Notes: generated from the letters alone by a model not told the origin. 64,000 nucleotides of DNA from Bacteroidales bacterium (GCA_025358455.1 JANYJP010000052.1:8643-72642); one strand, 5' to 3'. Positions 3,370 through 35,896 are shown, counted from the stretch's first letter. Numbers and translations are program-made.

Positions 3370-4119
3370 ATGAAAATTCTGGTTTGTATCAGTAATGTTC
3401 CCGACACAACGACAAAAATTAAATTTGCCGAAGGAAATACCTCCATTGACACTACCGGTATTCAGTGGGTTATAAACCCATGGGACGAATTATCTCTTAC
3501 CCGTGCTCTTGAACTTAAAGATGATGCAACAAGTGGAGTAAAATCCGTAACTGTTGTGCATGTTGGTACTGCAAGCTCCGAACCAACAATCCGTAAAGCG
3601 CTTGCCATAGGCGCAGATGATGCTATAAGGGTAAATGCCGAATCGTCCGATGCATGGTTTGTTGCAGCCCAGATTGCTGAGGTGGCCAAAAAGGAACAGT
3701 TTGATATCATTATATGTGGAATTGAATCAAGTGATTTTAATGGCTCGGCAGTTGGAGGGATGATCTCTGAATTTCTTGGGATTCCTTCAGTTTCAGCTGT
3801 TTCAAGCCTTAAAATTGAAAATGGACAGCCTGTTATGACCCGCGAAATTGACGGTGGTAAAGAAGTTGTTAATGTTCAGGCTCCCTTTGTTGCAATAGTT
3901 CAGAAGGGTATTGCCAAAGAACCGCGGATTGCTGCAATGCGTGGAATAATGATGGCTAGAACAAAACCCGTTAAATTAATGGAACCGCTTGCAATTGAGC
4001 CGCTTACTCAGATCATTGAGTTTGAAAAACCAACTCCCAGGGCAGCTTGTAAATATATTGATGCAGATAATCCTGCGCAGCTTATTGATCTTTTGCAGAA
4101 TGAGGCAAAGGTTATCTGA
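3370..4119 (+). CDS. etfB: Electron transfer flavoprotein beta subunit
   Basis: MKILVCISNVPDT, INPWDE, ALAIGADDA, REIDGG, EPR motifs. Confidence 0.95.
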   Translation: MKILVCISNVPDTTTKIKFAEGNTSIDTTGIQWVINPWDELSLTRALELKDDATSGVKSVTVVHVGTASSEPTIRKALAIGADDAIRVNAESSDAWFVAAQIAEVAKKEQFDIIICGIESSDFNGSAVGGMISEFLGIPSVSAVSSLKIENGQPVMTREIDGGKEVVNVQAPFVAIVQKGIAKEPRIAAMRGIMMARTKPVKLMEPLAIEPLTQIIEFEKPTPRAACKYIDADNPAQLIDLLQNEAKVI

Positions 4120-4151
4120 TAATTAGTTAAAAAACAGTAAATCATTACAAT

Positions 4152-5120
4152 ATGTCAGTATTAGTATATACCGAGAATTGGGAAGGAAAATTCAAAAAAC
4201 TTTCTTTCGAGCTTGTCTCTTACGCTAGCGGAGTTGCTAAAATGCTTAACACAACTGTAACCGCGGTTTCAATAGGAAAGGTAGAAGATAATGAATTGAA
4301 AAGACTGGGGAATTGTGGTGCTAACAAAATTATCAATATAATTAATGATCAATTGATCACCCTTGATAATCAGGCTTATGCAAGTGTAATTTCTGACATT
4401 TCGAAAAAGGAAAATGCAACTGTTATTATTATTTCAAATAACAATACTGGTAAAGCAATTGCCCCGCGATTATCAGTGCGATTGAAGGCAGGCGTGGGTT
4501 CGGGTGTAAGCAGACTTCCATTAAATATAAATCCTTTCACGGTATACAAAAGAACTTATTCAGGCAACGCGTTTGCTCACCTGGTAATTAAATCAGATGT
4601 TAAAATACTAACTCTTGCCCAGAACTCTTTTGACCTGATCGAAACTGCAAATAATGCTTCAATTGAAAATTTGAATGTATCTGTTGACGGATCATTGGTT
4701 AAGACTTCGGTAAAGGATGTTCAGAAACAATCCGGTAAAATCCTTCTTACAGATGCAGATATAGTTGTTTCAGGAGGAAGGGGAATGAAATCTCCCGACA
4801 ACTGGCCGCCTCTGGTAGAGCTTGCAACATTACTTGGCGCAGCTACTGCATGCTCACGTCCGGTTTCTGATGAAGGATGGAGGCCTCACGAAGAGCATAC
4901 AGGACAAACGGGCAAAATCATAGCGCCAAACCTATATATTGCCGTTGGTATTTCAGGTGCAACACAACACCTTGCCGGTATCAGTTCATCGAAATTTATC
5001 GTTGCAATCAATAGCGATAAAGATGCCCCGATATTTCAGGCAGCTCAGTATGGTATTGTCGGCGACGCAATGAAAATTATTCCTAAACTGGTATCTGCTG
5101 TAAAAGAGATCAGGAAGTAA
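4152..5120 (+). CDS. etfA: Electron transfer flavoprotein alpha subunit
   Basis: [47 protein letters not shown]-binding motifs. Confidence 0.95.
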
Positions 5121-5137
5121 GAAACAGAGCTAAATCT

Positions 5138-6457
5138 ATGACGAAACAGATAATATTTGCAATAACGCTACTGCTGACATTAGGAGCCTTCGCTTATACA
5201 GTTAACAGGATTGTAAGCTTTTTCAGATTTACCAGACCGGCATTTCCTGTTAAAAATTTCGGAAAGAGATTCGGAGTAATGATGAATGTTGCTTTTGGAC
5301 AAACAAAAATATTCCGTAAACCCGTTATCGGATTTTTTCATGCACTGGTTTTCTGGGGTTTTTGCATAATCATTTTCGGAAGTCTTGAGATGCTGATTGA
5401 TGGACTAACCGGTACAGAAAGAGTTCTGAAGGCGCTTGGACCTGTATATAATATTATTATGGCTTCAGGCGATATCTTTGCCCTGCTTGTTGCAGTATCG
5501 ATAATTATTTTCCTGGCAAGAAGAATTTTCTTTCACATAAAAAGATTTGAAGGTATCGAGATGAATAAAATGACTCATATCGATGCAAATATTGCTCTTT
5601 CAATCATCCTGATTCTGATGATTTCACTACTTACAATGAATATCGGATATGTTAAATATAACTCACAGATAGGTGAGGCTACAGTAGGATTGTTTCCTGT
5701 GAGCTCATTGATTGCGGGTTTTATTACTGAAGGACAGGCAGAAAGTTTCAGTCTGATGTATCAGGCATCATGGTGGTGTCATATTCTGCTTATATTCCTG
5801 TTTGCCAACCTGTTGCCGTATTCAAAGCATTTCCATGTATTCATGTCGGTGCCAAATGTATTTCTATCAAGGCTTGATCCCCTCGGAAAACTTCCAAATA
5901 TGGACAGCATTACAAGAGAAGTAAAACTTATGCTTGACCCGAATGCAGCTTTTGCAGCGCAACCTTCTGATGCACCTGTAGAACGTTTTGGTGTAAAAGA
6001 CGCGGAAGATGCTTCCTGGAAAAACTATTTTGACTCCTTATCATGTACACAGTGCGGTCGCTGTACCTCTGTGTGCCCGGCAAATATCACTGGTAAGAAA
6101 TTGTCGCCAAGGAAAATTATGATGGACCTTCGTGCAAGGATGAAAGAGAAAGGGCCTCTGATGGTTAAAAACGGAAGGGATTTCAGTGACAACCGTTCTC
6201 TGCTGAGAGATTTTATTTCGGAGGAGGAAATATGGGCCTGTACAACATGCAATGCCTGCGCGAAAGAGTGTCCTATAAATATCAACCATCCGACTTTGAT
6301 TGTTGATATTCGCAGGTACCTCGTTATGGAAGAAGCTTCTGCTCCGGGTGAGATAAAAGCTATGTTTAATAATATTGAGAATAACGGCGCTCCCTGGCAA
6401 TACTCGGCTGAGGACAGGCTTAACTGGGCAAAAGAGTTAGACATTAATATGAAATAA
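5138..6457 (+). CDS. FadF/EMO-like oxidoreductase, membrane heme b + 2x[4Fe-4S] half
   Basis: Multiple TM helices with His (FHALVFWGF, WWCHILL, SKHFHVF), then CTQCGRCTSVCP and CTTCNACAKECP; follows etfBA. Confidence 0.85.
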   Translation: MTKQIIFAITLLLTLGAFAYTVNRIVSFFRFTRPAFPVKNFGKRFGVMMNVAFGQTKIFRKPVIGFFHALVFWGFCIIIFGSLEMLIDGLTGTERVLKALGPVYNIIMASGDIFALLVAVSIIIFLARRIFFHIKRFEGIEMNKMTHIDANIALSIILILMISLLTMNIGYVKYNSQIGEATVGLFPVSSLIAGFITEGQAESFSLMYQASWWCHILLIFLFANLLPYSKHFHVFMSVPNVFLSRLDPLGKLPNMDSITREVKLMLDPNAAFAAQPSDAPVERFGVKDAEDASWKNYFDSLSCTQCGRCTSVCPANITGKKLSPRKIMMDLRARMKEKGPLMVKNGRDFSDNRSLLRDFISEEEIWACTTCNACAKECPININHPTLIVDIRRYLVMEEASAPGEIKAMFNNIENNGAPWQYSAEDRLNWAKELDINMK

Positions 6458-6520
6458 CCCCCATCCCTCCCGACAGTTATCGGGACTTTCCCACCCTGGG
6501 GGGAAATCTGAAAGGGGGTA
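6456..6520. repeat. REP-like GC hairpin with a nested 18-bp palindrome
   Basis: TCCCGA-CAGTTA-TCGGGA (6468-6485) lies inside CCCCCATCCC/CTTTCCCACCCTGGGGGGAAA...AAAGGGGG. Confidence 0.55.
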
Positions 6521-6575
6521 ATTAATATCAGTTTAACTAATTAATTAGAAAAGCATCATAAAAGAATAGAGATAT

Positions 6576-7370
6576 ATGGAAACCCGGAAAATTGATGTCC
6601 CAGTTATGGCAGAACTCTTAGCGGGAGGAGAGAAGCCGGAATACCTGTTCTGGGTAGGTTGCGCCGGAGCATTTGATGACAGGTATAAGAAAGTAGTCAG
6701 GTCATTTGCAAAGATCCTCACACATTTAAATGTAAGTTATGCAGTTCTGGGAAAGGAAGAAACCTGTACCGGTGATCCCGCCAGACGTGCCGGAAACGAA
6801 ATGCTTTATCAGATGCAGGCACTGCAGGTAATTGAGATCTTCAAAAGGTATGAAGTGAAGAAGATAATCACAATATGTCCACATTGTTTCAATATTTTTA
6901 AAAATGAATATCCTGATCTGGGCGGCAAATATGAAGTGATAAATTATCTTCAGTTTCTGAACAGGAATATTGAGGGGGGAAAATTAAAAATTGATCCCCT
7001 CGGATTGAAAAATATATCTGTAACATATCACGATCCATGTTATCTCGGAAGGGCAAATGATGTTTATGATGAACCGCGTGCCATTCTGAAAAAGCTTACC
7101 GGGAACCTGGTCGAGATGCAAAGGAACAAAAGCTTTTCTTTATGTTGTGGAGCAGGAGGTGCGCAGATGTTTAAAGAGGCTGAGAAAGGTGACAAGGAAG
7201 TATTTATCGAGAGAACGGAAGACGCACTGAAGACGGATGCGAAAGTAATTGCAACCGCGTGTCCTTTCTGCATGACCATGCTGACAGATGGTCTGAAATA
7301 TAAAAACAAAGAGGAAGAAATAAAAAACCTTGATATTGCAGAATTGATAGCACAATCGCTGGAATTATAG
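6576..7370 (+). CDS. FadF/EMO-like oxidoreductase, CCG-domain Fe-S half
   Basis: YLFWVGC, ETCTGD, ICPHC, YHDPCYLGR, LCCGAGG, TACPFC (HdrB/HdrD-type CCG domains). Confidence 0.88.
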   Translation: METRKIDVPVMAELLAGGEKPEYLFWVGCAGAFDDRYKKVVRSFAKILTHLNVSYAVLGKEETCTGDPARRAGNEMLYQMQALQVIEIFKRYEVKKIITICPHCFNIFKNEYPDLGGKYEVINYLQFLNRNIEGGKLKIDPLGLKNISVTYHDPCYLGRANDVYDEPRAILKKLTGNLVEMQRNKSFSLCCGAGGAQMFKEAEKGDKEVFIERTEDALKTDAKVIATACPFCMTMLTDGLKYKNKEEEIKNLDIAELIAQSLEL

Positions 7371-7396
7371 ATTAATAGAAATAATTATCTGATACA

Positions 7397-9175
7397 ATGG
7401 AAAACAGTAAACTCTTGAAAAGCGGTGAATTTCTTGTTAGCGAAGTTGAATCGAAAGATATATTCATTCCTGAGGAATTTAACGAGGAACAGAGAATGAT
7501 TGCCCAGACATGCAGCGACTTTCTTGAAGCTGAGGTATATCCCAATCTTGAAAAGGTTGAGAAAAGCGACAGGGAGCTGATGAAAAGCATGCTGAAAAAG
7601 TCCGGTGAACTAGGATTAATGGGAATATCTATTCCCGAAGAGTTTGGAGGTTTCGGACAATCGTTTGTAACACAAATGCTTGTTGCTGAGACAACCGGTG
7701 CAGGATATTCATTTTCAGTTGCATACATGGCACATTGCGGCATCGGCACTTTACCGATAATGTACTATGGGAACAAATTTCAGAGAGAACATTATGTTAC
7801 GAAACTGGCATCAGGTGAATTTATCGGAGCGTATTGTCTTACTGAACCCGGTGCAGGAAGCGACGCAAATTCAGGAAAAACCAATGCAAAATTAAGTGAT
7901 GACGGGAAACACTATATTCTCAATGGTCAGAAAATGTGGATTACAAATGCCGGATTTGCTGATACACTTGTAGTTTTTGCCAAAATTGATACCGACAGGG
8001 TATTAAGCGCCTTTATAGTTGAAAGTAAATACGCTGGTGTTGTTATTGGTCCCGATGAACATAAAATGGGAATCAAAGGATCTTCAACAGCACAGATCTA
8101 TTTTAATGATGTAAGAGTTCCGGTTGAAAATATGCTTGGCAAAAGAGGTGAGGGCTTCAGGATTGCACTGAGCATTCTTCATATGGGCCGCCTGAAACTT
8201 GGAGCTAATGTCATTGGAGCCGGAAAGAAAGCAATTAATGATTCAGTAAAGTATGCTAACGAAAGGAAACAGTTTGGAGTTCTCATTTCAACCTTTGGCG
8301 CTCTGAAACATAAAATGGCAGAACAGGTAATCCGTCTTTTCGCTTCAGAATCAGCCGTATACAGAGTAAGCAGCGATATTGATACTCTTATGAAGAAGCT
8401 GACAGTTGATTGCGGAGACTATGGAAGAGCTTCAATCGAAGCTATCAGCCACTATGCTGTTGAGGCAGCAATTCTTAAAGTTGTGGGATCCGAAATGCTT
8501 GATTTTATTGCTGATGAGGCAGTTCAGATACATGGAGGTATGGGGTACTCTGCTGAAATGGCAGTTGAAAGGGGATACCGCGATTCGAGGATTAACAGAA
8601 TCTTTGAAGGAACAAATGAAATAAACCGCCTTCTTGTTGTTGACACTGCCATGAAACGCGCTATGAAAGGTGATTTTGATCTTTATGGTGAGGCGGAAAA
8701 ACTTTATACGGGTCTGAATAGTATTACTGATGGAAAAACTGCAGAAGAAAGTTTCTTCCGGGAGAAAACGAGATATACCAAAAACTTCAAGAAAGCTATA
8801 CTTATCTGTATTCATGGCGCGACCAAACGATTCGGGAAAGGTCTCATTAACGAACAGGAGGTTTTAAATAATATTGCTGAAATGATGATGGAAACTTATG
8901 TTTCTGAATCACTTGCACTCAGAGTCGAAAAAATGTCAGCAATTAAAGAAAATGTATCAGTCTATAAAGATATGCTTGACGTTAATATATCCGATACAGC
9001 GGGTATCGTCAGAAAATCTGCCCTGGAGGCAATCGGCTCATTCTCAACGCCTGAATCATGCCAGTCACTCATCAACGCAATTGAAAATCTTACCCGGGTG
9101 AAATGTGTAAATGTGAAAGATGCCAGAAGGCGAATCGCTGATAAACTAATTGAAGACAATAGTTACAAATTCTGA
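7397..9175 (+). CDS. Acyl-CoA dehydrogenase (long form, 592 aa)
   Basis: AYCLTEPGAGSD, NGQKMWITN, KMGIKGSST, RKQFG, QIHGGMGY, RIFEGTNEINR. Confidence 0.95.
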   Translation: MENSKLLKSGEFLVSEVESKDIFIPEEFNEEQRMIAQTCSDFLEAEVYPNLEKVEKSDRELMKSMLKKSGELGLMGISIPEEFGGFGQSFVTQMLVAETTGAGYSFSVAYMAHCGIGTLPIMYYGNKFQREHYVTKLASGEFIGAYCLTEPGAGSDANSGKTNAKLSDDGKHYILNGQKMWITNAGFADTLVVFAKIDTDRVLSAFIVESKYAGVVIGPDEHKMGIKGSSTAQIYFNDVRVPVENMLGKRGEGFRIALSILHMGRLKLGANVIGAGKKAINDSVKYANERKQFGVLISTFGALKHKMAEQVIRLFASESAVYRVSSDIDTLMKKLTVDCGDYGRASIEAISHYAVEAAILKVVGSEMLDFIADEAVQIHGGMGYSAEMAVERGYRDSRINRIFEGTNEINRLLVVDTAMKRAMKGDFDLYGEAEKLYTGLNSITDGKTAEESFFREKTRYTKNFKKAILICIHGATKRFGKGLINEQEVLNNIAEMMMETYVSESLALRVEKMSAIKENVSVYKDMLDVNISDTAGIVRKSALEAIGSFSTPESCQSLINAIENLTRVKCVNVKDARRRIADKLIEDNSYKF

Positions 9176-9195
9176 GTATCAGTATAAATAAAGGA

Positions 9196-9229
9196 ATAAA
9201 AAAATGGCTTCTCAGGAAGCCTTTTTTAT
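9196..9229 (+). terminator. Intrinsic terminator ending the etf/acyl-CoA dehydrogenase operon
   Basis: GGCTTC-TCAG-GAAGCC stem, A-tract before and T-tract after. Confidence 0.8.
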
Positions 9230-9352
9230 GCGGTAAAGCAGGATACCGGTTATGTACAGCTGTCCGGCTTGCCGGACGTACAAATAGTTCAGCGACTGAA
9301 TGATCGATGAATAAGATACCAGTTGGATCATTACCCTTTGTAAATTTGGACA

Positions 9353-9410
9353 AAAATATATATCATCCGGTTAAGTGACATAGATCAATTTTCAATGTGA
9401 TAAAGAGCAT
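9353..9410. promoter_or_regulatory. Three Crp/Fnr-type boxes at 22-bp spacing upstream of the cytochrome operon
   Basis: AAAAT-atat-ATCAT (9353), GTGAC-atag-ATCAA (9375), GTGAT-aaag-AGCAT (9397); compare the FNR consensus TTGAT-N4-ATCAA. Confidence 0.65.
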
Positions 9411-9464
9411 GGCATTGTAGTCAATTTTGTTGTTCATAAGGTCCTAATTATCATCGTAATCTGA

Positions 9465-9472
9465 TATCTTTG
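9465..9472 (+). promoter_or_regulatory. -7 promoter element of the cytochrome operon
   Basis: TATCTTTG (TAnnTTTG), 25 nt before the ATG at 9498. Confidence 0.6.
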
Positions 9473-9497
9473 TGAACAAATTAACACTAACAAAAAT

Positions 9498-9875
9498 ATG
9501 AATCAGAGAGTAAATAGGATCAGACAGATACTGGTTGCATTAGTAATGATAGCAGCAGTTGTAGGATTTTCTTCGTGTGAAAAGTATTCATATACTCCAC
9601 CTGCAGTTAATTCGAATACAACATGGCATTTTCAAACGGACATCCAGCCAATATTCAATTCTAATTGCGTTTCTTGTCATGGTGGCACTCAATCCCCAAA
9701 CCTGAGCAGCGGCAAATCTTTTGAAGCGCTTAAAAATGGCGGGTTTGTTAAGCTTCCAGCTGAAACGGGCAGACTCTATTTAAAAATGAACAGCTCCAGT
9801 CATATTTCAAGATCTACTGAGACAGACAGACTGAAAGTTCTATATTGGATTACTCAGGGAGCCCTCAATAATTAA
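9498..9875 (+). CDS. Monoheme c-type cytochrome lipoprotein
   Basis: Lipobox FSS-C; DIQPIF..NCVSCH..P.L and C-terminal WITQGA, similar to planctomycete-type cytochrome c domains. Confidence 0.8.
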   Translation: MNQRVNRIRQILVALVMIAAVVGFSSCEKYSYTPPAVNSNTTWHFQTDIQPIFNSNCVSCHGGTQSPNLSSGKSFEALKNGGFVKLPAETGRLYLKMNSSSHISRSTETDRLKVLYWITQGALNN

Positions 9876-9905
9876 AAATAACCAAACCAGATAAAACCGA
9901 TTGAT

Positions 9906-10769
9906 ATGAAAAAGATTTTTATCGTACTAACTCTATCATTATTTCTTCTTCCTGTATTTGCACAGGAAACAACTCCGACAGATGACGCATCCAAACCAGT
10001 AAGATTTACTTTTGGATCAACTACTTTAATAGATAATCAAACAGTTGCCACTCCTTACAAAGGTGGTCTGGAACTGGACATTCAACACCGGTTCAGCCTT
10101 ATTGAAAACTATCATAACCTTTTTGGTATTTATGGTTCAGCTAATACCAGAATAGGACTGGATTATGGTATTACAGACAGGTTGATGGTCGGTATCGCTA
10201 CAACAAAGGATTATAAACTTCAGGATATTCAGTGGAAGTATCTTATCCTTCAGCAAACTGAAGACAACAAGATGCCTGTTTCCGTTTCATATTATGGTAA
10301 CTTCGTTGCCGATCTGGAGAAAAGCGATGCATTCGGTCCATCCGATAGTTTTAAAAATATTCACAGGTTCTCTTATTTCACTCAGCTTATTGTTGCACGT
10401 AAATTAAGTGAAAAGATTTCTGTTCAGGTAGCACCATCAGTAGCTTATTTCAATTCTGTACCTATCAGTTCCGATTCTGTCGGCTACAAGAATCTTAACC
10501 TTGGTATTTCAGTAGGTGCCCGCGCAAATCTTTTTGGTTCACATTCACTTATACTTGAATATGACCAGTTACTCACTAAACAGAATATTGATATTCAGCC
10601 AAAACCAAATCTTGCACTCGGGTGGGAGATAAGTACTGCAACTCATTCTTTTCGCATATTTGCTTCAAACTATTCTCAGATAATCAATCAACGGAATCTT
10701 TTATTCAACACAAATGATTTCGCAAAAGGTAAGTATCTGATTGGTTTTAATATCACTGTAAGGTTTTAA
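9906..10769 (+). CDS. Outer-membrane beta-barrel, DUF5777-like
   Basis: Signal peptide (VFA-Q), IQHRF, FGIYG..RIGLDYGITDRL, EISTATHSF, C-terminal GFNITVRF ending in Phe. Confidence 0.75.
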   Translation: MKKIFIVLTLSLFLLPVFAQETTPTDDASKPVRFTFGSTTLIDNQTVATPYKGGLELDIQHRFSLIENYHNLFGIYGSANTRIGLDYGITDRLMVGIATTKDYKLQDIQWKYLILQQTEDNKMPVSVSYYGNFVADLEKSDAFGPSDSFKNIHRFSYFTQLIVARKLSEKISVQVAPSVAYFNSVPISSDSVGYKNLNLGISVGARANLFGSHSLILEYDQLLTKQNIDIQPKPNLALGWEISTATHSFRIFASNYSQIINQRNLLFNTNDFAKGKYLIGFNITVRF

Positions 10770-10788
10770 TTCAATTAAGTAATCTGGA

Positions 10789-11781
10789 ATGATGCTTTTT
10801 AAATGCCGGATCATTATCCTGGCAGCATTTATCTCTGTTAGTACTTTAGCCTCGGCCGGTATATTCCGGTCAAAAATTGAAGAAAATAAAACACAGGATT
10901 CAACATCCTTTGTTTCGCAATTTGCGGAGGATAATAACCGATGTTTTAAATGCCACGGTCAGGCGAGATATGAGTATACAAATGAAACTCTCGGAAAACA
11001 GGTAAAAGCTCTGATGTGTTCTGAAAGGATCGTGAACAAAGAAGACTTTTACAAATCAAATCATAAAACCTTCAGCTGTACTGATTGTCATTCTGAAGAA
11101 TATACAAAATTTCCTCACTCCGGGGACCTCAGGATGGAGCAAAAATTGATTTGCATAGATTGTCATGGGGGAGATGAGAAATTTGCTCAATATCATTTTG
11201 AGGAGATTGAGTCAGAATACAAAAAAAGCACCCATTTTAAAATGGAAGAAGATGGATTCTCCTGCTGGAAATGCCACAATCCACACTCCTATAAGATAAG
11301 CGTCAGAAATAGTACCAATCTTAAGGAAACAATTGCTTATGATAATGCGATCTGTCTGAACTGCCATTCCAACTACAGCCGTTTTCAGCTTCTAAGCGAT
11401 AAAGCGGAAATAAACATTATTCAAAAACACGACTGGCTTCCTAACCAGACTTCACATTTTGCTAATGTCCGTTGTATAGAATGCCACTCACAGATCAATA
11501 ATAATATTCCGGTATCACATCTTATTAAGCCCAAGGCAGAAGCAGTAAGGCATTGCAACGAATGTCATTCACAAAATTCGATCCTTATGGCATCTTTATA
11601 TAAATTTGAATCTAAAGAACAACGTCGTGACGGTTTTTTTAACGGGATAATATTAAATGCATCTTATGTGATAGGGGCAAACAGGAATGAATATCTTAAC
11701 CTTTTAAGCCTTGTTATATTTTTTGGCGTAGTTGTTGTAATAATAGTGCATATAGTATTCAGGATCAGGAAAAAATTGTAA
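10789..11781 (+). CDS. Heptaheme cytochrome c with C-terminal membrane anchor (CbcA-like)
   Basis: Seven CxxCH motifs (CFKCH, CTDCH, CIDCH, CWKCH, CLNCH, CIECH, CNECH), signal peptide, C-terminal TM helix containing a His. Confidence 0.9.
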   Translation: MMLFKCRIIILAAFISVSTLASAGIFRSKIEENKTQDSTSFVSQFAEDNNRCFKCHGQARYEYTNETLGKQVKALMCSERIVNKEDFYKSNHKTFSCTDCHSEEYTKFPHSGDLRMEQKLICIDCHGGDEKFAQYHFEEIESEYKKSTHFKMEEDGFSCWKCHNPHSYKISVRNSTNLKETIAYDNAICLNCHSNYSRFQLLSDKAEINIIQKHDWLPNQTSHFANVRCIECHSQINNNIPVSHLIKPKAEAVRHCNECHSQNSILMASLYKFESKEQRRDGFFNGIILNASYVIGANRNEYLNLLSLVIFFGVVVVIIVHIVFRIRKKL

Positions 11782-11802
11782 AACTACTTAAAGCAGATCG
11801 AG

Positions 11803-12420
11803 ATGTATCTTTACCCAAAATGGTTAAGAGCCTGGCATGTTCTAAACGCTGTATTATTTCTTATTCTTATCATTACCGGCTTAAGCATGCAGTATACTGA
11901 TAAAGAAAATGCCTCTTATATTGTGGGATTTTCAAAGGCTATAAAATGGCATAATTTTGCAGCTATAGTATTGATTATAAACTATGTAATATTTGTAATC
12001 GGCAATTTTCTAACAGCCAATGGGAAATACTATATGATCGGCAGGAAGAATTTTATATCCGATCTCATGAAGCAACTGAAATTCTATTCTTTTGGTATGT
12101 TTAAAGGTGAAAAGCATCCATTTCCGGTAACAGAAGAGCGTAAATTTAATCCCCTGCAAAAATTAACTTATGTACTTGCAATGTATGTTGCACTTCCTTT
12201 GCTGATCATATCAGGTATTGGTTTGCTTTTTCCGGAAATTACTATCAAAACAATATTTGGGGTAAGCGGACTTATTCTTACTGACATTTTGCATATTACA
12301 ATGGGCTTCTCACTTTCCATATTTATGATAATTCATATTTATACATGTACTCTGGGATCTAAACCAACATCTTTGTTCAGAGGAATAATAACAGGCTACC
12401 ACATAAGTGACGATCATTAG
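11803..12420 (+). CDS. Diheme cytochrome b, FdnI/PhsC type (CbcB-like)
   Basis: Four TM helices; RAWHVLNA, KWHNF, KFNPLQKL, ILHI...IHIY supply the His ligands. Confidence 0.9.
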   Translation: MYLYPKWLRAWHVLNAVLFLILIITGLSMQYTDKENASYIVGFSKAIKWHNFAAIVLIINYVIFVIGNFLTANGKYYMIGRKNFISDLMKQLKFYSFGMFKGEKHPFPVTEERKFNPLQKLTYVLAMYVALPLLIISGIGLLFPEITIKTIFGVSGLILTDILHITMGFSLSIFMIIHIYTCTLGSKPTSLFRGIITGYHISDDH

Positions 12421-12494
12421 TCAAATTTGTTTTCATGAGTCGTTTATTTGAACGAATTTTGCATAAAGTCTTAATAAATTTAAAATCAAGGATT

Positions 12495-12890
12495 ATGAAA
12501 ACTGTAAAATTACTTTTTATCGGATCAGTATTCATGTTACTGAGTGTCTCTTTGATTGCCCAGCCTAAGCCCTGGGTTGTTCCAGCAAACTTTAAAGCAA
12601 TGAAGAACCCTGTTGCAAAAAGTGATGCCAGCAATAAAGCCGGAATGGCTATTTTTAATAAGAACTGTGCTTCATGTCATGGGAAGGCAGGACTCGGTGA
12701 TGGCGTTAAAGCAAAATCACTTAAAGAGCCTATGAATGATTTTTCTAAAGCTGACTTCCAAAACCTGGCTGACGGTGATATTTTTTACAAAACCAAAACC
12801 GGAAGAGGCGACATGCCCAAATATGAAGGTAAACTAACCGATGACGATATCTGGAATGTTGTTAACTATGTAAGAACGTTCAAGAAATAA
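12495..12890 (+). CDS. Periplasmic monoheme cytochrome c
   Basis: Signal peptide (LIA-Q), CASCHG, GDMP distal Met, DIWNVVNYVR; start moved to 12495. Confidence 0.9.
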   Translation: MKTVKLLFIGSVFMLLSVSLIAQPKPWVVPANFKAMKNPVAKSDASNKAGMAIFNKNCASCHGKAGLGDGVKAKSLKEPMNDFSKADFQNLADGDIFYKTKTGRGDMPKYEGKLTDDDIWNVVNYVRTFKK

Positions 12891-13139
12891 TTGAGAATTT
12901 TTGATTCCTGTCCGGCCTTGTCCTCCGGGATCGAAGATTCGGATCATAAACCATTTCCTGTTCTCATCATATACCGGAGGCAGATATAAATTAATCTGAG
13001 CTTATGGGATTAAGATGAATTTTTTTTACTTTTCCCCATCAGATTGTCTGTTTTAGATAGATGACATATATTTCAGATTCCAGTTATGACAAGGAATCAC
13101 TAGGTTACTTATAAAGACCATCATGTATGTAATTTACCT

Positions 13140-13173
13140 AAAAAAAAGCTGAACTCAGAATGAGCTCAGCTTT
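13140..13173 (-). terminator. Intrinsic terminator of the hexaheme lipoprotein gene
   Basis: AGCTGAACTC-AGAAT-GAGCTCAGCT stem with an A-run on the left, giving a T-tract on the minus strand. Confidence 0.75.
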
Positions 13174-13195
13174 CAGATTTTATATTAATTAATTT

Positions 13196-14500
13196 CTAGT
13201 ATCCTGCAGCTGTCATAGCTTCAATGGAATTCTGAAGCAGAGCTTTTGAATACTTGTAGTTATGAATACCCAGGCTGAATTCTCTCAAACACATCTGGAA
13301 ATTGATCATTGAACCCATTGTTGCATTAAGTAATGTAGGGAATAACGGGAATGCACTATTGGCAGCTTTCTGAGCAGTTGTCCATGAACCGGCGGGTGCA
13401 GGGTTTCTCCATACGCCTCCGGGGTTTGTTGATGGGTCATACATATTGATATAACCATCAAAGTTTCCGGTTGTCAGGCCAGCCCATACGTTTGCTGTTG
13501 CGTCGGGCTCACTGTGAAGTATTGCTGTAGCGCCACCAACAGCATTTATTTTTGTGGCAAGAGTGTTCAGGAGTGTTTTTATCTCGTTCCTGGTAGTTAA
13601 CCAGTAGGTTGTTGAAGTTGCAGTGATAGGTGCTGTATGACATCCTGTGGTATTACAGCTGGTGAAATTGCCTTTTGCAGCAAATGTGTGACCACCGGCT
13701 TTCCCTGTTATTTCAGACATATGACATTCAGCGCATGATGCAACTGTTGTATGAATAGAATTTGCATAAGCTACTGAACCTGCAAACTGAATTCCACCCT
13801 GACCTGCAAAGACGGCACCAACTGTACCATAATGAACATGTGTTCTGTAGGATGGGATAACCTTATTCGGAGCGGCGTTCCCAACTGAACTGTCATAGAA
13901 AACAGTTGTCGGACTTGCAGCCAGAGCATCATAATCAACTACGTCGCCGTTTGATGTTGAGGTACTTGTTGTGAGAGGACGTGGCTGATGACATTTAATA
14001 CAAAGGTTGCTCGAAGCTCCATCCTGAGTAAGATTTATGGTTTTTGCGCCTTTCCACATTGTCATTGCAACCGGCGCTGTATTTGTAAATGGTTTAAAAT
14101 CATCTGCAGTATAGGTCGTATGCAAACTGCTGTGGCAGGTAAAGCAAGTAAGTGCACCCAATGTTTTAGAAGGAATAGATACATAGTTATTGGAATATTT
14201 ACCCGTGGTTGAATTTAATGTAAAAGTGGCAGGGATATTATTTGCACATACATATTTGAAAGCATCTGAAGTATGGCATGGAGTACAACCTGTATTCCCG
14301 GCTTCTTCTTCGGCAACTACTCCATAACTATGTTTGGAGAATTCAAATTCCACTGCTTTCTGGTCAACTACTGTCGGGCTATGACACTCTTTGCAAGTCT
14401 CATTCGCATCTTTCCCCGAAAGACCTCTTGGCCCTTCACAGGAAGTAAGAATGAAGCCTGAAACAGTTAAAAGAGATAATAATCTGATTAGGTTTTTCAT
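13196..14500 (-). CDS. Multiheme (5 CxxCH + 1 CX4CH) cytochrome c lipoprotein
   Basis: Lipobox LTS-C; CKECH, CTPCH, CFTCH, CIKCH, CAECH, CNTTGCH; C-terminal SLGIHN; start moved to 14500 (MKNLIR). Confidence 0.85.
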   Translation of the reverse strand: MKNLIRLLSLLTVSGFILTSCEGPRGLSGKDANETCKECHSPTVVDQKAVEFEFSKHSYGVVAEEEAGNTGCTPCHTSDAFKYVCANNIPATFTLNSTTGKYSNNYVSIPSKTLGALTCFTCHSSLHTTYTADDFKPFTNTAPVAMTMWKGAKTINLTQDGASSNLCIKCHQPRPLTTSTSTSNGDVVDYDALAASPTTVFYDSSVGNAAPNKVIPSYRTHVHYGTVGAVFAGQGGIQFAGSVAYANSIHTTVASCAECHMSEITGKAGGHTFAAKGNFTSCNTTGCHTAPITATSTTYWLTTRNEIKTLLNTLATKINAVGGATAILHSEPDATANVWAGLTTGNFDGYINMYDPSTNPGGVWRNPAPAGSWTTAQKAANSAFPLFPTLLNATMGSMINFQMCLREFSLGIHNYKYSKALLQNSIEAMTAAGY

Positions 14501-14592
14501 ATTAGGATTATTAGTTAAATTTTCGTTCTGCAATTTACTACAAACCTCTGTTATACGATTAACAGACCATATGCTATTTGCGATATTTAAAA

Positions 14593-14655
14593 TTGATAGA
14601 TATACCCCGTGCGTGTGACAAATATCAATTAATAGAATGATATTTGTTAGCTTTG
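14593..14655. promoter_or_regulatory. Three Crp/Fnr-type boxes at 22-bp spacing in the divergent promoter, overlapping the regulator's -7 element
   Basis: TTGAT-agat-ATACC (14593), GTGAC-aaat-ATCAA (14615), ATGAT-attt-GTTAG (14637); TAGCTTTG at 14648-14655. Confidence 0.65.
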
Positions 14656-14706
14656 TATTCTTTTAGCTTATTAAAATTCTATTTTTAAACCCTTTATAAA
14701 AAACAT

Positions 14707-15402
14707 ATGTCAGGCATAAATTTAATTGATAGCTGTGAGAAATGTTCCAGAAGATGGAAGAATTTCCAGCATCTTACAAAAAGTGAATTGCAGCTGATAA
14801 ATGATAACAGGTACGAAGCAACATTCAAACCAGGGGAGATAATGCTAAAGCAGGGATCACCAACCTCCAATGCATTGTTCCTGGCGAACGGGATGGCAAA
14901 AACATATGTAGAAGGTATAAACGGGAAGAACTTTATTATGGGCATAGCCTTACCAGGGAGACTTATAATGGGTCCGGGTGCTTACGTAAATTCGCGTCAC
15001 ACATATTCCGTGGCAGCGATTACATTTGTTCAAGCCTGTTTTATAAGTTTTGATATATTTAAGCAACTTGTAAGAACGAATGGTGCTTTTGCCGAGAGCC
15101 TGCTGGAAGATATCAGTGAGAAATCGCTGGGTTCACTAAACCAGCTGGTCAATCTGACACAAAAGAAAATGCCGGGAAGGCTCGCTGATGCGCTACTGTA
15201 TTTTTCAGGCGAAGTTTTCAACTCCGACAAATATGAAATGATTCTATCACGCCAGGAACTTGGTGAAATGACTAATATGGCCAAGGAATGTGTTGTTAGA
15301 ATACTAAAAGAGCTTGAAGATTCGGGAGTAATTTATTCTGATTCATCAAAAATAGAAATACGCGATAAAGAAAAACTTATTCAGATATCTGAAAAAGGCT
15401 AA
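14707..15402 (+). CDS. Crp/Fnr family transcriptional regulator
   Basis: cNMP-like domain, GRLADALL, HTH LSRQELGEMTNMAKECVVRIL; N-terminal CEKC. Confidence 0.92.
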   Translation: MSGINLIDSCEKCSRRWKNFQHLTKSELQLINDNRYEATFKPGEIMLKQGSPTSNALFLANGMAKTYVEGINGKNFIMGIALPGRLIMGPGAYVNSRHTYSVAAITFVQACFISFDIFKQLVRTNGAFAESLLEDISEKSLGSLNQLVNLTQKKMPGRLADALLYFSGEVFNSDKYEMILSRQELGEMTNMAKECVVRILKELEDSGVIYSDSSKIEIRDKEKLIQISEKG

Positions 15403-15464
15403 ATGAATATTGACGGGTTTTGGATTAATGACTGATAAATTAAATTATCAAACTAATTAGTGTT

Positions 15465-18191
15465 ATGAAATATTTAAAATTTCTGCTTTCCCCTGTTTTC
15501 ATGGGTGTTTTGTTCGTTTTATTTGCTCTCGCTATGGCTGTGGCTACTTTCATCGAAAACGATTTTGGATCAGCTGCTGCATACAACATGGTTTACAATT
15601 CACATTGGTTTGAGCTGATATTGTTACTTCTTGCGGTGAATCTTGTCGGACAGTTGATAATTTTCAAACTCTTTAAATTAACAAGGCTTCCGGGCGCCCT
15701 GTTCCACCTTTCATTTATTATCATGATCCTTGGTGCCTGTATAACAAGATACTTCGGATGGGAAGGCTCAATTCATATACGCGAAGGAGAGGAGCAAAAA
15801 GAATGTTACTCGAGTGAGAAATATATTGGATACACAATACAAAACACCGAAGGGAAGGTTTTATTCTCCGGCTCCCAGAAATATTCAATGACAGCCGTTT
15901 CAGCGGATAACTTTAAAAAGAAAGTCAGAATCAATGAAAAAGATTATGAACTGGTTCTGAGAAAGATAATTCCTAATACCTTGGCATCAGGTTCTGTAAA
16001 TCCCATGGAACAGCGTTCAATTGAGAATACTTTTGTATTTCAATTGAAAAGTGGCAACGAATCATCAACTATTAATCTGATCGACAGGGAATCGGAAAAG
16101 ATTTCAACAGGATCAGGCACCATTAACGGCGCAAAAGTTGAGATCAGTTACGGATCAAAAGTTACAATCCTTCCTTTCACAATCAGGTTGAACGATTTTA
16201 TTCTCGAAAGATATCCGGGATCTAACAGTCCGTCGAATTATAAAAGTGATGTAGTTCTGATCGATAAAAATATAAATATCGAAAAACCTTTCATGATTTT
16301 CATGAATAATATCCTGAAATATAAGGGATACCGCTTTTACCAATCGTCGTTCGACAGGGATGAAAAAGGAACAATTCTATCTGTTAATCATGATATGGCT
16401 GGTATGCTTGTTACATATACGGGATATGGTCTCCTGTTCATATTTATTATATTGTCACTGTTGAATAAGAATTCTGTATTTCATAATATTAATTCAGGCT
16501 ACTGGAAATCCGCTATCAGAAAATCAATTCCTGTTATTTTAGTACTTCTTTTATTATCAGGTTTCTCAACAGTAAACGGCCAGAAACTTATTCCGGATAA
16601 AACTGTTTCGGTGGAGTTTGGCAAAATTTTGGTTCAGGATCAGAAGGGAAGGACAAAACCCCTCTTTACACTTAGTAACGACATACTTAGAAAAGTTACA
16701 AGGGAAAATGAATTTGAAGGACTTAATTCGATGCAGGTATTCCTTGGTCTCTATCTCGATTTTAATAACTGGAGAGATGTACCATTAATAAGTATTTCAA
16801 ATAAAGACCTTCAGAGAAAACTTGGTATAACAGGTAAATATGCCTCGTTTTCTGATCTTGTAGATATCACCGGTAATGGCAGCTATAAAATTGCTGATGA
16901 GGTTAATACTGCATATTCTAAAGCTCCCGGAGCGAGATCCAAATTGGATAAGGAGGTTATGAAAATCGATGAACGCCTGAACATAGTCTTTATGATTTAT
17001 AAAGGAGATTTTCTGAAATTATTTCCTCTTAAGGATGGTACTCATAACTGGGGTTCTACGCAGGAAGCTCTTCAGCGGGCGGTAAGTAATGAAGATTCAC
17101 TATATCTGAAAAGTATAATTCCGGCCTTCACAGAAGCAGTTCAATCCACTAATATTGGGCGGGCCCGTCAGGTTACTGAATCGATAAGTAGTTATCAGAC
17201 AAGATTTTCAGAGTATTCACTTCCTTCAAAATCAAAAACAAACAGTGAACTTTTATATTATAAATTAAACATATTCGAAAAGCTATTCCCATTCTATGCA
17301 ACTGTTGGACTGATTATGCTTATCGGGTTAATTACAATGGTTATTAAGGGGAAAAAAGATAAGTCATTATTCGTAAAAATTCTGGGATGGCTTCTTTTTG
17401 CCGGATTTCTCTTCCATACTTTCGGGCTTGGTCTGCGGTGGTATGTTGCGGGCCATTCGCCAATGAGTAACGGGTATGAGTCGATGATATTTATTTCGTG
17501 GGTTACACTTTTAGCCGGATTCATTTTCAGCCGTAAATCTGCATTTGCTCTTTCTGCAACAGCTGTTCTGGCGTCAATGACTCTTATGGTTGCTCATCTC
17601 AGCTTTATGGATCCTGAGATCACTAACCTGGTGCCTGTACTGAAATCATACTGGCTTACCCTGCACGTGTCGGTCATTACAGGGAGCTACGGTTTTCTTG
17701 GTCTTGGTGCAATCCTCGGACTTATTATACTGATATTAATTTCGTTGTCAAATAATTCTAACCGTGAAAGAATTTCAGATACGATTGATGAATTAACCGT
17801 TATTAATTATAAAACACTGACTCTTGGCTTGTATTTACTGACAATAGGAACCTTCCTTGGTGCTGTGTGGGCAAATGAATCATGGGGAAGATACTGGGGA
17901 TGGGACCCGAAGGAAACATGGTCATTGATTACTATCATAATATATAGTATTGTAATACACTCAAGACTCATCCCGGGATTGAAGGACATATTTACGTTTA
18001 ACCTCCTGTCGCTGTTCGCGTTTTCAGGGGTTTTGATGACCTACTTCGGGGTTAACTATTATTTATCGGGTATGCATTCTTATGCCTCAGGCGATCCGGT
18101 ACCGGTACCATCATTTGTTTATATCGCGGTTATTGCTCTCGCGGCACTCTCATTGCTGGCGCATACAAAATACAGGAAGTTTGTAAAATGA
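15465..18191 (+). CDS. ccsA: System II cytochrome c biogenesis protein, fused CcsB-CcsA
   Basis: ResB-like N-part (ATFIE, FHLSF, GYRFYQSS) and WWD motif WANESWGRYWGWDPKETW; WLTLH; GMHSYA. Confidence 0.93.
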   Translation: MKYLKFLLSPVFMGVLFVLFALAMAVATFIENDFGSAAAYNMVYNSHWFELILLLLAVNLVGQLIIFKLFKLTRLPGALFHLSFIIMILGACITRYFGWEGSIHIREGEEQKECYSSEKYIGYTIQNTEGKVLFSGSQKYSMTAVSADNFKKKVRINEKDYELVLRKIIPNTLASGSVNPMEQRSIENTFVFQLKSGNESSTINLIDRESEKISTGSGTINGAKVEISYGSKVTILPFTIRLNDFILERYPGSNSPSNYKSDVVLIDKNINIEKPFMIFMNNILKYKGYRFYQSSFDRDEKGTILSVNHDMAGMLVTYTGYGLLFIFIILSLLNKNSVFHNINSGYWKSAIRKSIPVILVLLLLSGFSTVNGQKLIPDKTVSVEFGKILVQDQKGRTKPLFTLSNDILRKVTRENEFEGLNSMQVFLGLYLDFNNWRDVPLISISNKDLQRKLGITGKYASFSDLVDITGNGSYKIADEVNTAYSKAPGARSKLDKEVMKIDERLNIVFMIYKGDFLKLFPLKDGTHNWGSTQEALQRAVSNEDSLYLKSIIPAFTEAVQSTNIGRARQVTESISSYQTRFSEYSLPSKSKTNSELLYYKLNIFEKLFPFYATVGLIMLIGLITMVIKGKKDKSLFVKILGWLLFAGFLFHTFGLGLRWYVAGHSPMSNGYESMIFISWVTLLAGFIFSRKSAFALSATAVLASMTLMVAHLSFMDPEITNLVPVLKSYWLTLHVSVITGSYGFLGLGAILGLIILILISLSNNSNRERISDTIDELTVINYKTLTLGLYLLTIGTFLGAVWANESWGRYWGWDPKETWSLITIIIYSIVIHSRLIPGLKDIFTFNLLSLFAFSGVLMTYFGVNYYLSGMHSYASGDPVPVPSFVYIAVIALAALSLLAHTKYRKFVK

Positions 18192-18251: not shown

Positions 18252-18329
18252 TGGGGTGGAAGATGGGGCTCGAACCCACGACCTTCGGAACCACAATCCG
18301 ACGTTCTAACCGACTGAACTACATCCACC
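18252..18329 (-). tRNA. tRNA-His (GTG)
   Basis: Reverse complement G-GTGGATGTAGTTCAGTCGGTTAGAACGTCGGATTGTGGTTCCGAAGGTCGTGGGTTCGAGCCCCATCTTCCACC-CCA: G-1, GTG anticodon, TTCGA loop, C73, encoded CCA. Confidence 0.97.
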
Positions 18330-34343: not shown

Positions 34344-35896
34344 TTGATAATATTGATCTTACCCTGGTGGGCTGGTCGAGGGCACAATTTGCACTGACTG
34401 CAATATACCACTGGCTCTTTGTCCCTCTGACACTTGGTTTATCATTTATCCTTGCAATAATGGAGACCATATATTTTAGGACAGGGAAAGAAGAATGGAA
34501 GATGATTACCAGGTTCTGGATGACCCTTTTCGGGATAAACTTCGCTATTGGTATTGCCACAGGCATAATTCTCGAATTTGAATTTGGTGCCAACTGGTCA
34601 AATTATTCATGGTTTGTGGGTGATATTTTTGGAGCCCCTCTGGCTGTTGAAGGCATTCTTGCCTTTTTCCTTGAATCTACATTTGTTGCTGTAATGTTTT
34701 TCGGATGGAATAAAGTTAGCAGAAAGTTCCACCTGATATCTACCTGGCTTGTAGCTATAGGAGCCAGCCTTTCAGCTTTATGGATTCTTGTAGCAAATGC
34801 CTGGATGCAGAATCCTGTCGGGATGGCGTTTAATCCTGAAACGGCAAGGAATGAAATGGTCAGTTTTTGGGCTGTCCTTTTTAATCAGGTGGCCGTTGAT
34901 AAGTTCCTTCATACAATATCATCAGGTTTCCTTCTGGCATCAATGTTTGTATTGAGTATAAGTTCCTGGTTCCTGTTAAAAAAGAGAGAGGCACTCCTTG
35001 CAAAAAACAGCATACTTGTTGCCGGGATATTTGGGTTGATGTCTTCATTAATGGTTGCATATACCGGGGATCAATCAGCCCGGACAGTCTCAAGAGTCCA
35101 GCCGGTAAAATTTGCAGCAATGGAAGCTTTATTCGAAGGAAAGAGCAATGCCGGCCTTACTGCTTTCGGGATTCTGAAAAACTCAGATAAAATGATTGGA
35201 GAAAAAAACCAAAAAGAATTTGTTGTTAAAATTGAAATCCCGGGCTTACTTTCAGTTCTGACAGCCGGCGACAGAGATGCATATGTTCCAGGATTGGTTG
35301 ATCATATATCAGGTAATGCAAAGATAGGGATTATGTCAGTTCAGGAAAAAATGCAGAGGGGCGGGGTTGCAAGGAACACTCTTACAGATTACCTGAATGC
35401 AAAGAAACTTAATGTAACTGAACAGATAGAAAATATTAAAAATGTTTTCATAAGTAAAGATTTTCAGGAAAATTATTTCAAATATTTTGGATACTCTTCG
35501 ATTAAGAACCCCGAGGAAGTTATACCGAGTGTGCCAACTTCATTTTATTCCTTCCACCTGATGGTTATACTGGGGTTTCTCTTCATAATAATATTTGTAT
35601 TAGCCATAAATCAGTTGTTTCAGGGAACTATTGAGAAAGACAGATGGTTCTTGTGGATAGCATTTTTGTCACTTCCGCTACCTATTCTGGCCAGTGAACT
35701 CGGATGGATACTTACTGAAGTCGGACGTCAGCCATGGATAATTCAGAATCTGATGCCGGTGTCTGGTGGTGTTTCTAATATCAGTTCAGGGTCAGTAATT
35801 ACAACCTTTATTCTTTTCGCGGTGCTTTTCACAGTCTTGCTTATATCGGAAATCTCAATTATGGTTAAACAGATTAAAACAGGACCAAAACATTAG
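34340..35896 (+). CDS. cydA: Cytochrome bd oxidase subunit I
   Basis: SRAQFA...YHWLF, EFEFG.NW, NAWMQ.P, QP.KFAAME, E.GRQPW. Confidence 0.97.
   Translation: MIDNIDLTLVGWSRAQFALTAIYHWLFVPLTLGLSFILAIMETIYFRTGKEEWKMITRFWMTLFGINFAIGIATGIILEFEFGANWSNYSWFVGDIFGAPLAVEGILAFFLESTFVAVMFFGWNKVSRKFHLISTWLVAIGASLSALWILVANAWMQNPVGMAFNPETARNEMVSFWAVLFNQVAVDKFLHTISSGFLLASMFVLSISSWFLLKKREALLAKNSILVAGIFGLMSSLMVAYTGDQSARTVSRVQPVKFAAMEALFEGKSNAGLTAFGILKNSDKMIGEKNQKEFVVKIEIPGLLSVLTAGDRDAYVPGLVDHISGNAKIGIMSVQEKMQRGGVARNTLTDYLNAKKLNVTEQIENIKNVFISKDFQENYFKYFGYSSIKNPEEVIPSVPTSFYSFHLMVILGFLFIIIFVLAINQLFQGTIEKDRWFLWIAFLSLPLPILASELGWILTEVGRQPWIIQNLMPVSGGVSNISSGSVITTFILFAVLFTVLLISEISIMVKQIKTGPKH

Follow-up and report, generated by a model that had tools for sequence, protein, structure and literature searches.

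A conserved cytochrome gene module with a DUF5777 outer-membrane barrel in a Bacteroidales bacterium, a candidate for extracellular electron transfer

Does a Bacteroidales bacterium encode a route by which respiratory electrons could leave the quinol pool, cross the outer membrane and reach an acceptor outside the cell? The question is raised by a gene block at positions 3370-18191 of a 64,000-nucleotide (nt) stretch of DNA from Bacteroidales bacterium GCA_025358455.1 (JANYJP010000052.1:8643-72642), hereafter the window. In an initial annotation, the block was read as one conduit leading from acyl-CoA, via the electron transfer flavoprotein (ETF), to the cell surface. All the genes listed there were recovered at their positions by open reading frame (ORF) listing and family scans (Table 1). 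They are arranged in two plus-strand operons (3370-9175 and 9498-12890) and a minus-strand hexahaem cytochrome gene, convergent with the cytochrome operon and divergent from crp, with crp and ccsBA following. The real unit is smaller than this 15-kb block: it comprises the hexahaem and monohaem lipoproteins, the DUF5777 outer-membrane barrel, the CbcA-like and CbcB-like cytochromes and the Crp/Fnr regulator. Extracellular electron transfer by a respiratory module carrying FNR-type boxes was the best reading of this set, and we give it an even chance.

One genome per species was scanned for the hexahaem gene; 344 of the 374 pattern matches encoded a hexahaem relative, and the analysis continued with the best 80 loci. 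Going by their labels, most of these were Bacteroidales metagenome-assembled genomes, with some Prolixibacteraceae, Lentimicrobiaceae and Tangfeifania. The window proteins were compared with all 80 loci, many of them incomplete, by tblastn (coverage of at least 40%). Matches were obtained for crp (60 loci), the barrel (53), the heptahaem cytochrome (51), cytochrome b (51), the monohaem lipoprotein (47), the monohaem cytochrome c (40), ccsBA (38) and fadE (23). Among the 45 of the best 80 loci with at least 9 kb on each side of the hexahaem gene (full loci), the respective counts were 39, 37, 37, 37, 35, 29, 26 and 20. The barrel stays beside the cytochromes: together with the heptahaem and cytochrome b genes, it was kept next to the hexahaem gene in 37 of the 45 full loci. 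The one-block reading of the initial annotation thus stood for the six-gene cytochrome set and fell for the etf operon and ccsBA, which are not specific parts of it.

The full loci fell into 25 with a window-like layout, 10 with all genes on one strand and 10 that were partial or without partners, five of the last group having no partner gene within 10 kb. The one-strand layout had the operon-like order crp, hexahaem, monohaem lipoprotein, barrel, heptahaem, cytochrome b. Many window-like relatives had three additional genes between cytochrome b and the monohaem cytochrome c (e.g. locus L012, 12323-15523), encoding an NrfC-like Fe-S protein (320 amino acids, aa), an NrfD-like membrane protein (435 aa) and a 297-aa protein without a family; the window lacks them, and the gap there is 15 nt.

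The module genes also share a regulatory element. Exactly two 14-mers of the FNR type were found in the window, at 9375 and 14615, one for each transcription unit of the module. With up to two mismatches to TTGAT-N4-ATCAA allowed, 74 of 79 evaluable loci had a box in the 300 nt ahead of the hexahaem gene (33/33 window-like, 15/17 one-strand and 26/29 unclassified), against a background of 599 in 3000 random 220-nt windows, which would be somewhat higher for windows of 300 nt. Between 250 and 30 nt upstream of the monohaem lipoprotein gene, a box was found in 27 of 29 window-like loci, mostly at -120 to -125, and in only 4 of 13 one-strand loci, where this gene is operon-internal. A scan for sigma-70 promoters remained at chance level (19 found, 23.0 expected). 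Regulators of the window type conserved Cys10, Cys13 and Cys111, that is three cysteines compared with the four of an FNR-type 4Fe-4S sensor, and those of the one-strand layout had a Cys-rich N terminus. We infer that the adjacent Crp/Fnr regulator may place the module under anaerobic or redox control. On sequence grounds, the view of the cytochrome genes, barrel included, as a real, conserved and probably co-regulated module is supported.

For the inner-membrane pair, the closest known system was CbcBA of Geobacter sulfurreducens, an inner-membrane bc-type menaquinol oxidase for low-potential extracellular acceptors. According to the accessible part of Joshi et al. (bioRxiv 10.1101/2021.04.15.440034), CbcA has seven haems and a C-terminal membrane domain supplying a histidine, CbcB is a four-helix dihaem protein usually annotated as thiosulfate-reductase-like, and homologous CbcBA clusters occur in Bacteroidetes. 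In the window, the heptahaem cytochrome had one C-terminal hydrophobic segment (residues 305-323), and its seven CxxCH motifs and His321 in the C-terminal helix were both kept in 47/47 aligned relatives. As in the published description, the heptahaem gene immediately precedes that of a small PF01292 cytochrome b. The latter has a HydC/FdnI-type architecture, its hydrophobic segments group into approximately four helices, and four histidines (His12, His50, His164 and His178) were kept in at least 98% of 45 sequences. Its best NCBIfam match was the PhsC-like NF011582 (thiosulfate reductase cytochrome b subunit), with 178 bits below the cut-off of 204; neither the cytochrome b nor the heptahaem protein had a significant match among PDB sequences. 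Since this architecture matches that of CbcBA as given in the accessible text, the inner-membrane part is already in print, and the CbcBA analogy drawn in the initial annotation was sound. Compared with the same source, the pair differed in its Crp/Fnr regulator and FNR-type box (sigma-54 and BccR in Geobacter), in the four conserved histidines of its cytochrome b (three described for CbcB) and in its linked outer-membrane genes, which are not among the cbcBA operon genes given there.

In the main texts covered, some of them in part only, no mention of DUF5777 and no prior description of the outer-membrane part were found, and nothing on this cluster appeared in PMC7914226. The AlphaFold2 model of the barrel (predicted local distance difference test score, pLDDT, 83.1) had 12 strands in 287 aa. 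In Foldseek, the highest template modelling scores (TMq) were obtained for a COG4313 channel (0.52), FapF (0.52), NanC (0.50) and Tsx (0.44), all of which we take to be small 12-stranded channels. As in MtrCAB of Shewanella and Pcc of Geobacter, an outer-membrane barrel is encoded with a multihaem lipoprotein beside a periplasmic electron supply, and like the outer-membrane lipoprotein of MtrCAB, the hexahaem protein combines an invariant lipobox cysteine (Cys32) with several haem sites, here six. The MtrB barrel has approximately 26 strands. With only 12, the barrel of the window would be too small to sheathe a multihaem protein in the manner of MtrB. The block lacks an MtrA-like periplasmic decahaem insert, and the adjacent partner of the barrel is a 125-aa monohaem lipoprotein. 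The porin-cytochrome analogy of the initial annotation is, therefore, not supported, the barrel being too small.

In this monohaem lipoprotein, the lipobox Cys27 and the haem motif were invariant (28/28), and the distal-ligand column held His, with Met in 4 of 28. Two barrel histidines, His61 and His247, were invariant in 29/29 relatives and kept in a 31%-identical paralogue. When the barrel and the monohaem lipoprotein were modelled as a complex, the interaction prediction score from aligned errors (ipSAE) was 0.42, compared with 0.00 for the best of three controls; at least 93% of contacts recurred between runs, with a partner pLDDT of at least 82. The verdict was 'weak support': in the calibration, this mark was reached by 58/80 solved complexes and 2/110 mismatches, and at scores of at most 0.60 by 7/80 solved complexes and both passing mismatches.

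A haem c domain paired with a modest outer-membrane barrel also recalls Cyc2, the barrel of which has approximately 16 strands. The monohaem lipoprotein and the barrel, encoded side by side, could accordingly be read as a split Cyc2 that takes electrons inward from Fe(II), a cathode or a partner cell, and there was a PccH match, although this was weak (18.7 bits, cut-off 24.4) and covered 25 residues around the haem motif only. Here, unlike in Cyc2, two genes are involved, the cytochrome is a lipoprotein, the barrel has 12 strands and the opposite direction of flow is expected; a barrel-cytochrome fusion was seen in none of the 150 DUF5777 matches listed. An FNR-type box and a quinol-oxidase-type cytochrome b would also fit an anaerobic outlet better. 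We consider electron uptake the least probable of the readings weighed here, and quite unlikely.

DUF5777 itself is not confined to this setting. It was detected in 127 of 301 sampled Bacteroidota genomes, and a CxxCH-containing ORF lay within 1.5 kb in 19 of 30 other DUF5777 loci. The same genome has a second copy, also beside a small cytochrome c (contig C119; locus L090, 6930-10307). A DUF5777 barrel and a small cytochrome c are thus a widespread pair in Bacteroidota, not one special to the CbcBA context. This second cassette encodes, in order, a 339-aa protein, a 128-aa monohaem cytochrome c, the barrel, a YceI-like protein and a tRNA_anti-like oligonucleotide/oligosaccharide-binding (OB) protein; the 339-aa protein has three PSCyt1-like cytochrome domains, two of them with CX4CH sites. 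Among the 150 matches listed, DUF5777 open frames were 270-384 aa long, save for one 607-aa frame with two barrels in tandem (G001, contig C7, 132016-133659).

The other cytochrome of the outer-membrane part, the hexahaem lipoprotein, comes from a family annotated only as hypothetical. This family had 1284 members at E ≤ 0.001 among 8000 proteins scored, and a profile search of 1.84 billion representatives gave 744 relatives at the same threshold; it was rare, being found in 2 of 301 sampled Bacteroidia genomes at E ≤ 1e-20, this genome included. All 119 relatives listed (self excluded) were named 'hypothetical protein', none of 10 distant relatives looked up by cluster carried a functional name, and Atlas look-ups returned only generically named cytochrome clusters. 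The ATG at 14500 is the likely start, as the resulting MKNL is the N-terminus of most relatives. Of its haem motifs, five are CxxCH and one is CNTTGCH (CX4CH); with one, seven and one CxxCH in the monohaem lipoprotein, the heptahaem cytochrome and the monohaem cytochrome c, the block has 14 CxxCH motifs and one CX4CH, which is how the 15 haem c motifs of the initial annotation are reached. In the alignment, the CX4CH site was invariant in 27/27 relatives, and all six haem sites and the lipobox cysteine were likewise invariant. Seven further histidines outside the motifs were invariant, so all six haems could be bis-His.

A Gly-X-Y linker follows the lipobox cysteine, with three triplets in the window protein and up to approximately eight in close relatives. 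Relatives of 579-911 aa had an N-terminal signal peptide followed by a domain of approximately 140 aa, and those of 642, 647 and 911 aa had Pfam-matched collagen repeats ahead of the cytochrome domain. Visual inspection of the 911-aa sequence placed its Gly-X-Y tracts at approximately residues 143-470. The collagen-like stalk beneath the cytochrome is presumably trimeric. The periplasm would be too narrow for a stalk of that length, which indirectly favours a location of the cytochrome head at the surface, and the stalks can be taken as hints that these relatives are surface-exposed.

Taken as a gene set, a conserved path leading from the quinol pool to the outer membrane has good support in the sequences. 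In the reading we prefer, the CbcB-like dihaem cytochrome b would oxidize menaquinol in the inner membrane and hand the electrons over to the membrane-anchored CbcA-like cytochrome, the seven haems of which would receive them in the periplasm. The soluble monohaem cytochrome c would probably assist their onward transfer to the two cytochrome lipoproteins, which may be associated with the small DUF5777 barrel. The hexahaem lipoprotein would then be the terminal donor, with an acceptor most likely at or outside the surface, such as Fe(III), Mn(IV) or humic quinones.

Several observations weigh against extracellular electron transfer, and some of them point to a respiratory reductase for a soluble acceptor in the periplasm instead. 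The hexahaem protein would then be a distant enzyme of the NrfA/octahaem type on the periplasmic side of the outer membrane, receiving its electrons from CbcBA and the monohaem cytochromes, while the DUF5777 barrel, the nearest folds to which are small substrate channels, would admit a small substrate. The hexahaem family is unusually conserved (64-75% identity to the window protein among the 119 relatives listed), and conservation as high as this is more in keeping with an enzyme than with a surface electron-transfer cytochrome. Long polar stretches outside the haem motifs, e.g. CHQPRP and PSYRxHVHYG, were likewise invariant. In the window protein, the NrfA family PF02335 scored 19.7 bits, below the cut-off of 24.1, and some relatives exceeded this cut-off (28.1, 26.6 and 25.9 bits). 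A profile search of the PDB with the hexahaem protein gave six matches, all at a non-significant E ≥ 0.074, the best including 6i5b (0.27), octahaem nitrite reductase (0.41) and NrfA (0.66). The similarity to NrfA, octahaem nitrite reductase and OcwA was thus weak and lay over the last haems and the C-terminal helices; unlike these proteins, the hexahaem protein lacks CxxCK and has six haems including CX4CH, a Gly-X-Y linker and a lipid anchor. If 6i5b is, as we assume, a surface terminal reductase with an NrfA-like core, likeness to NrfA does not separate the two readings. Against a periplasmic enzyme stand the missing CxxCK motif, the possible bis-His ligation of all six haems and the long collagen stalks, which are hard to fit into the periplasm. 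A periplasmic reductase is in our view a serious alternative, with a clearly smaller probability than extracellular electron transfer.

The remaining objections concern extracellular electron transfer itself. The long-stalk relatives are not lipoproteins, and the window protein has only its three triplets. AlphaFold2 modelled the hexahaem protein poorly (pLDDT 50.5, falling below 50 over residues 29-205 and part of the remaining haem region), and Foldseek with this model gave 13 matches, none at E ≤ 0.001. The likeness to Geobacter is one of architecture by description rather than of direct sequence comparison with GSU0593/GSU0594. The barrel is too small for an MtrB-type enclosure, and no fused cytochrome-barrel form was found, with no longer relatives at E ≤ 0.001 and none among the 150 matches listed. 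Since DUF5777 and small cytochromes are commonly paired, including in families that are possibly aerobic, the pair is not specific to metal reduction.

A more far-reaching version of extracellular electron transfer can be put forward only tentatively: that the DUF5777 barrel and the PSCyt1-like lipoprotein form a new minimal outer-membrane conduit linking CbcBA to a surface hexahaem cytochrome, and thereby underlie the 'fermentative-type' Fe(III) and Mn(IV) reduction of Bacteroidota. In functional terms, the pair would then correspond to a Cyc2 split in two, and the two invariant barrel histidines may take part in the transfer. If this were true, electrons would cross the outer membrane via a barrel much smaller than that of any known conduit. 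Bacteroidota are abundant fermenters of sediments, soils and digesters, and some isolates reduce iron and manganese; the module would provide a testable gene set for this metal reduction and a marker for metagenomes. In the accessible part of PMC5760507, Labilibaculum (Bacteroidetes) is described as reducing Fe(III) with glucose present and, in one strain, Mn(IV), the genes being unknown.

At the other end of the block, the etf operon raises the question of whether the electrons come from acyl-CoA in particular. The initial annotation placed acyl-CoA, ETF and its EMO/FadF-type quinone oxidoreductase, CbcBA, a porin-cytochrome pair and the surface in one dedicated conduit. Every part of it is present, and in 20 of the 25 window-like full loci the etf-EMO-fadE operon adjoined the module, with fadE 211-1725 nt from the monohaem lipoprotein gene. 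The operon ends, as initially annotated, in a terminator-like hairpin followed by a T run, however, and the FNR-type box lies after it, ahead of the cytochrome operon. In addition, etf, EMO and fadE were near the module in none of the 10 one-strand full loci, so that the expected linkage held for one layout and failed for the other. The menaquinone pool can be fed by any dehydrogenase, and oxygen reductases encoded in the genome offer alternative sinks. EMO is reversible in syntrophs and serves enoyl-CoA reduction there too, according to the accessible part of PMC8805022, and therefore either direction of flow is possible at the etf end. We regard a dedicated conduit as improbable. The etf-EMO-FadE operon forms a transcription unit of its own. 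It lies beside the module without being part of it, and the two are only loosely linked; given its terminator, the operon is tied to the module via the menaquinone pool only, which it is able to feed or drain.

The EMO/FadF-like protein resembles its namesakes in its membrane part, 4Fe-4S dicluster and two CCG domains and in adjoining etfBA and a FadE-type dehydrogenase; EMO/FadF is described with two haems b (accessible part of PMC8805022). It is, in contrast, written here as two ORFs with a 118-nt gap. This split was kept in most relatives, with gaps of approximately 50-150 nt or abutting frames, and to judge from these the two-ORF form is natural. The spacer (6458-6575) contains a C/G-rich inverted repeat, and a related strain's contig had several small deletions there.

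The genome (3.42 Mb, 95.7% complete) provides further context. Family searches gave four matches to haem-copper oxidase subunit I and two to cytochrome bd, one of them in the window, so the organism is not merely fermentative, contrary to the premise of the initial annotation. The cytochrome bd oxidase subunit I gene of the window lies at approximately 34373-35887 (C66:43015-44529). CcsBA was the sole PF01578 match found in the genome and therefore represents general system II maturation, serving all cytochromes of the genome rather than this block in particular. As initially annotated, the block holds no classical terminal reductase: motif counts and family scans found neither CxxCK nor a molybdopterin domain in it. 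Two molybdopterin-family matches lay elsewhere in the genome, and NrfA (PF02335) had no match in the genome at E ≤ 0.001.

Seven further ORFs of the genome had at least two CxxCH motifs. A six-haem ORF on contig C13 was considered as a relative of the hexahaem lipoprotein and ruled out (best E 0.17). An oxidase gene lies approximately 10 kb away, and the ORFs next to follow measure 990 and 458 aa, a neighbourhood that by size looks like alternative complex III. Contigs C131 and C84 (L002, 5001-6536, and L007, 5001-6530) carry two fusions of a NapC/NirT tetrahaem quinol dehydrogenase with a formylglycine-generating enzyme (FGE)-sulfatase (SUMF1-like) domain.

Table 1. Genes and sequence elements of the block, with positions in the window
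Feature	Position	Strand	Basis or remark
etfB, electron transfer flavoprotein beta subunit	3370-4119	+	PF01012, E 2.3e-32; neighbouring operon, outside core module
etfA, electron transfer flavoprotein alpha subunit	4152-5120	+	PF00766, PF01012
EMO/FadF-like N-terminal half, membrane part and 4Fe-4S dicluster	5138-6457	+	Fer4 families; 4 hydrophobic segments
EMO/FadF-like C-terminal half, two CCG domains	6576-7370	+	PF02754, E 5.9e-33, 2 stretches; TfrB and LdhH C-terminal matches
FadE-type acyl-CoA dehydrogenase	7397-9175	+	NF058590, 701.6 bits, cut-off 600
Terminator-like hairpin (9206-9221) and T run, end of etf-fadE operon	9206-9229	+	
FNR-type box GTGACATAGATCAA	9375-9388		123 nt upstream of monohaem lipoprotein gene
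Monohaem c lipoprotein, PSCyt1-like domain	9498-9875	+	One CxxCH
DUF5777 outer-membrane beta-barrel, 12 predicted strands	9906-10769	+	PF19089, E 7.8e-70
CbcA-like heptahaem cytochrome c, C-terminal membrane helix	10789-11781	+	7 CxxCH
CbcB-like cytochrome b, quinol oxidase type	11803-12420	+	PF01292, E 1.4e-25
Soluble monohaem cytochrome c, Sec signal	12435-12890, likely start 12495	+	PF13442, PF00034
Terminator-like hairpin 3' of hexahaem gene	13144-13174	-	14-pair stem and T run
Hexahaem lipoprotein, 5 CxxCH and 1 CX4CH	13196-14533, likely start 14500	-	Haem motifs, lipobox, alignment of relatives
FNR-type box GTGACAAATATCAA between hexahaem gene and crp	14615-14628		
Crp/Fnr-family regulator	14707-15402	+	PF13545, PF00027
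CcsBA, ResB-CcsA fusion	15465-18191	+	PF05140, PF01578; TIGR03144 198 bits, cut-off 187.6

Two libraries of one study that are labelled metatranscriptomic contained contigs with 90-99% likeness to parts of five genes of the cytochrome module (monohaem lipoprotein, barrel, heptahaem cytochrome, monohaem cytochrome c and hexahaem lipoprotein). One contig spanned the gene junction at 9875/9906 and another that at 10769/10789; contigs in an RNA library are not proof of transcription, and gaps in their cover carry no meaning. A read-depth spike at the end of the mapped stretch was due to a tRNA-His (GTG) gene on the minus strand (18252-18328), just 3' of ccsBA.

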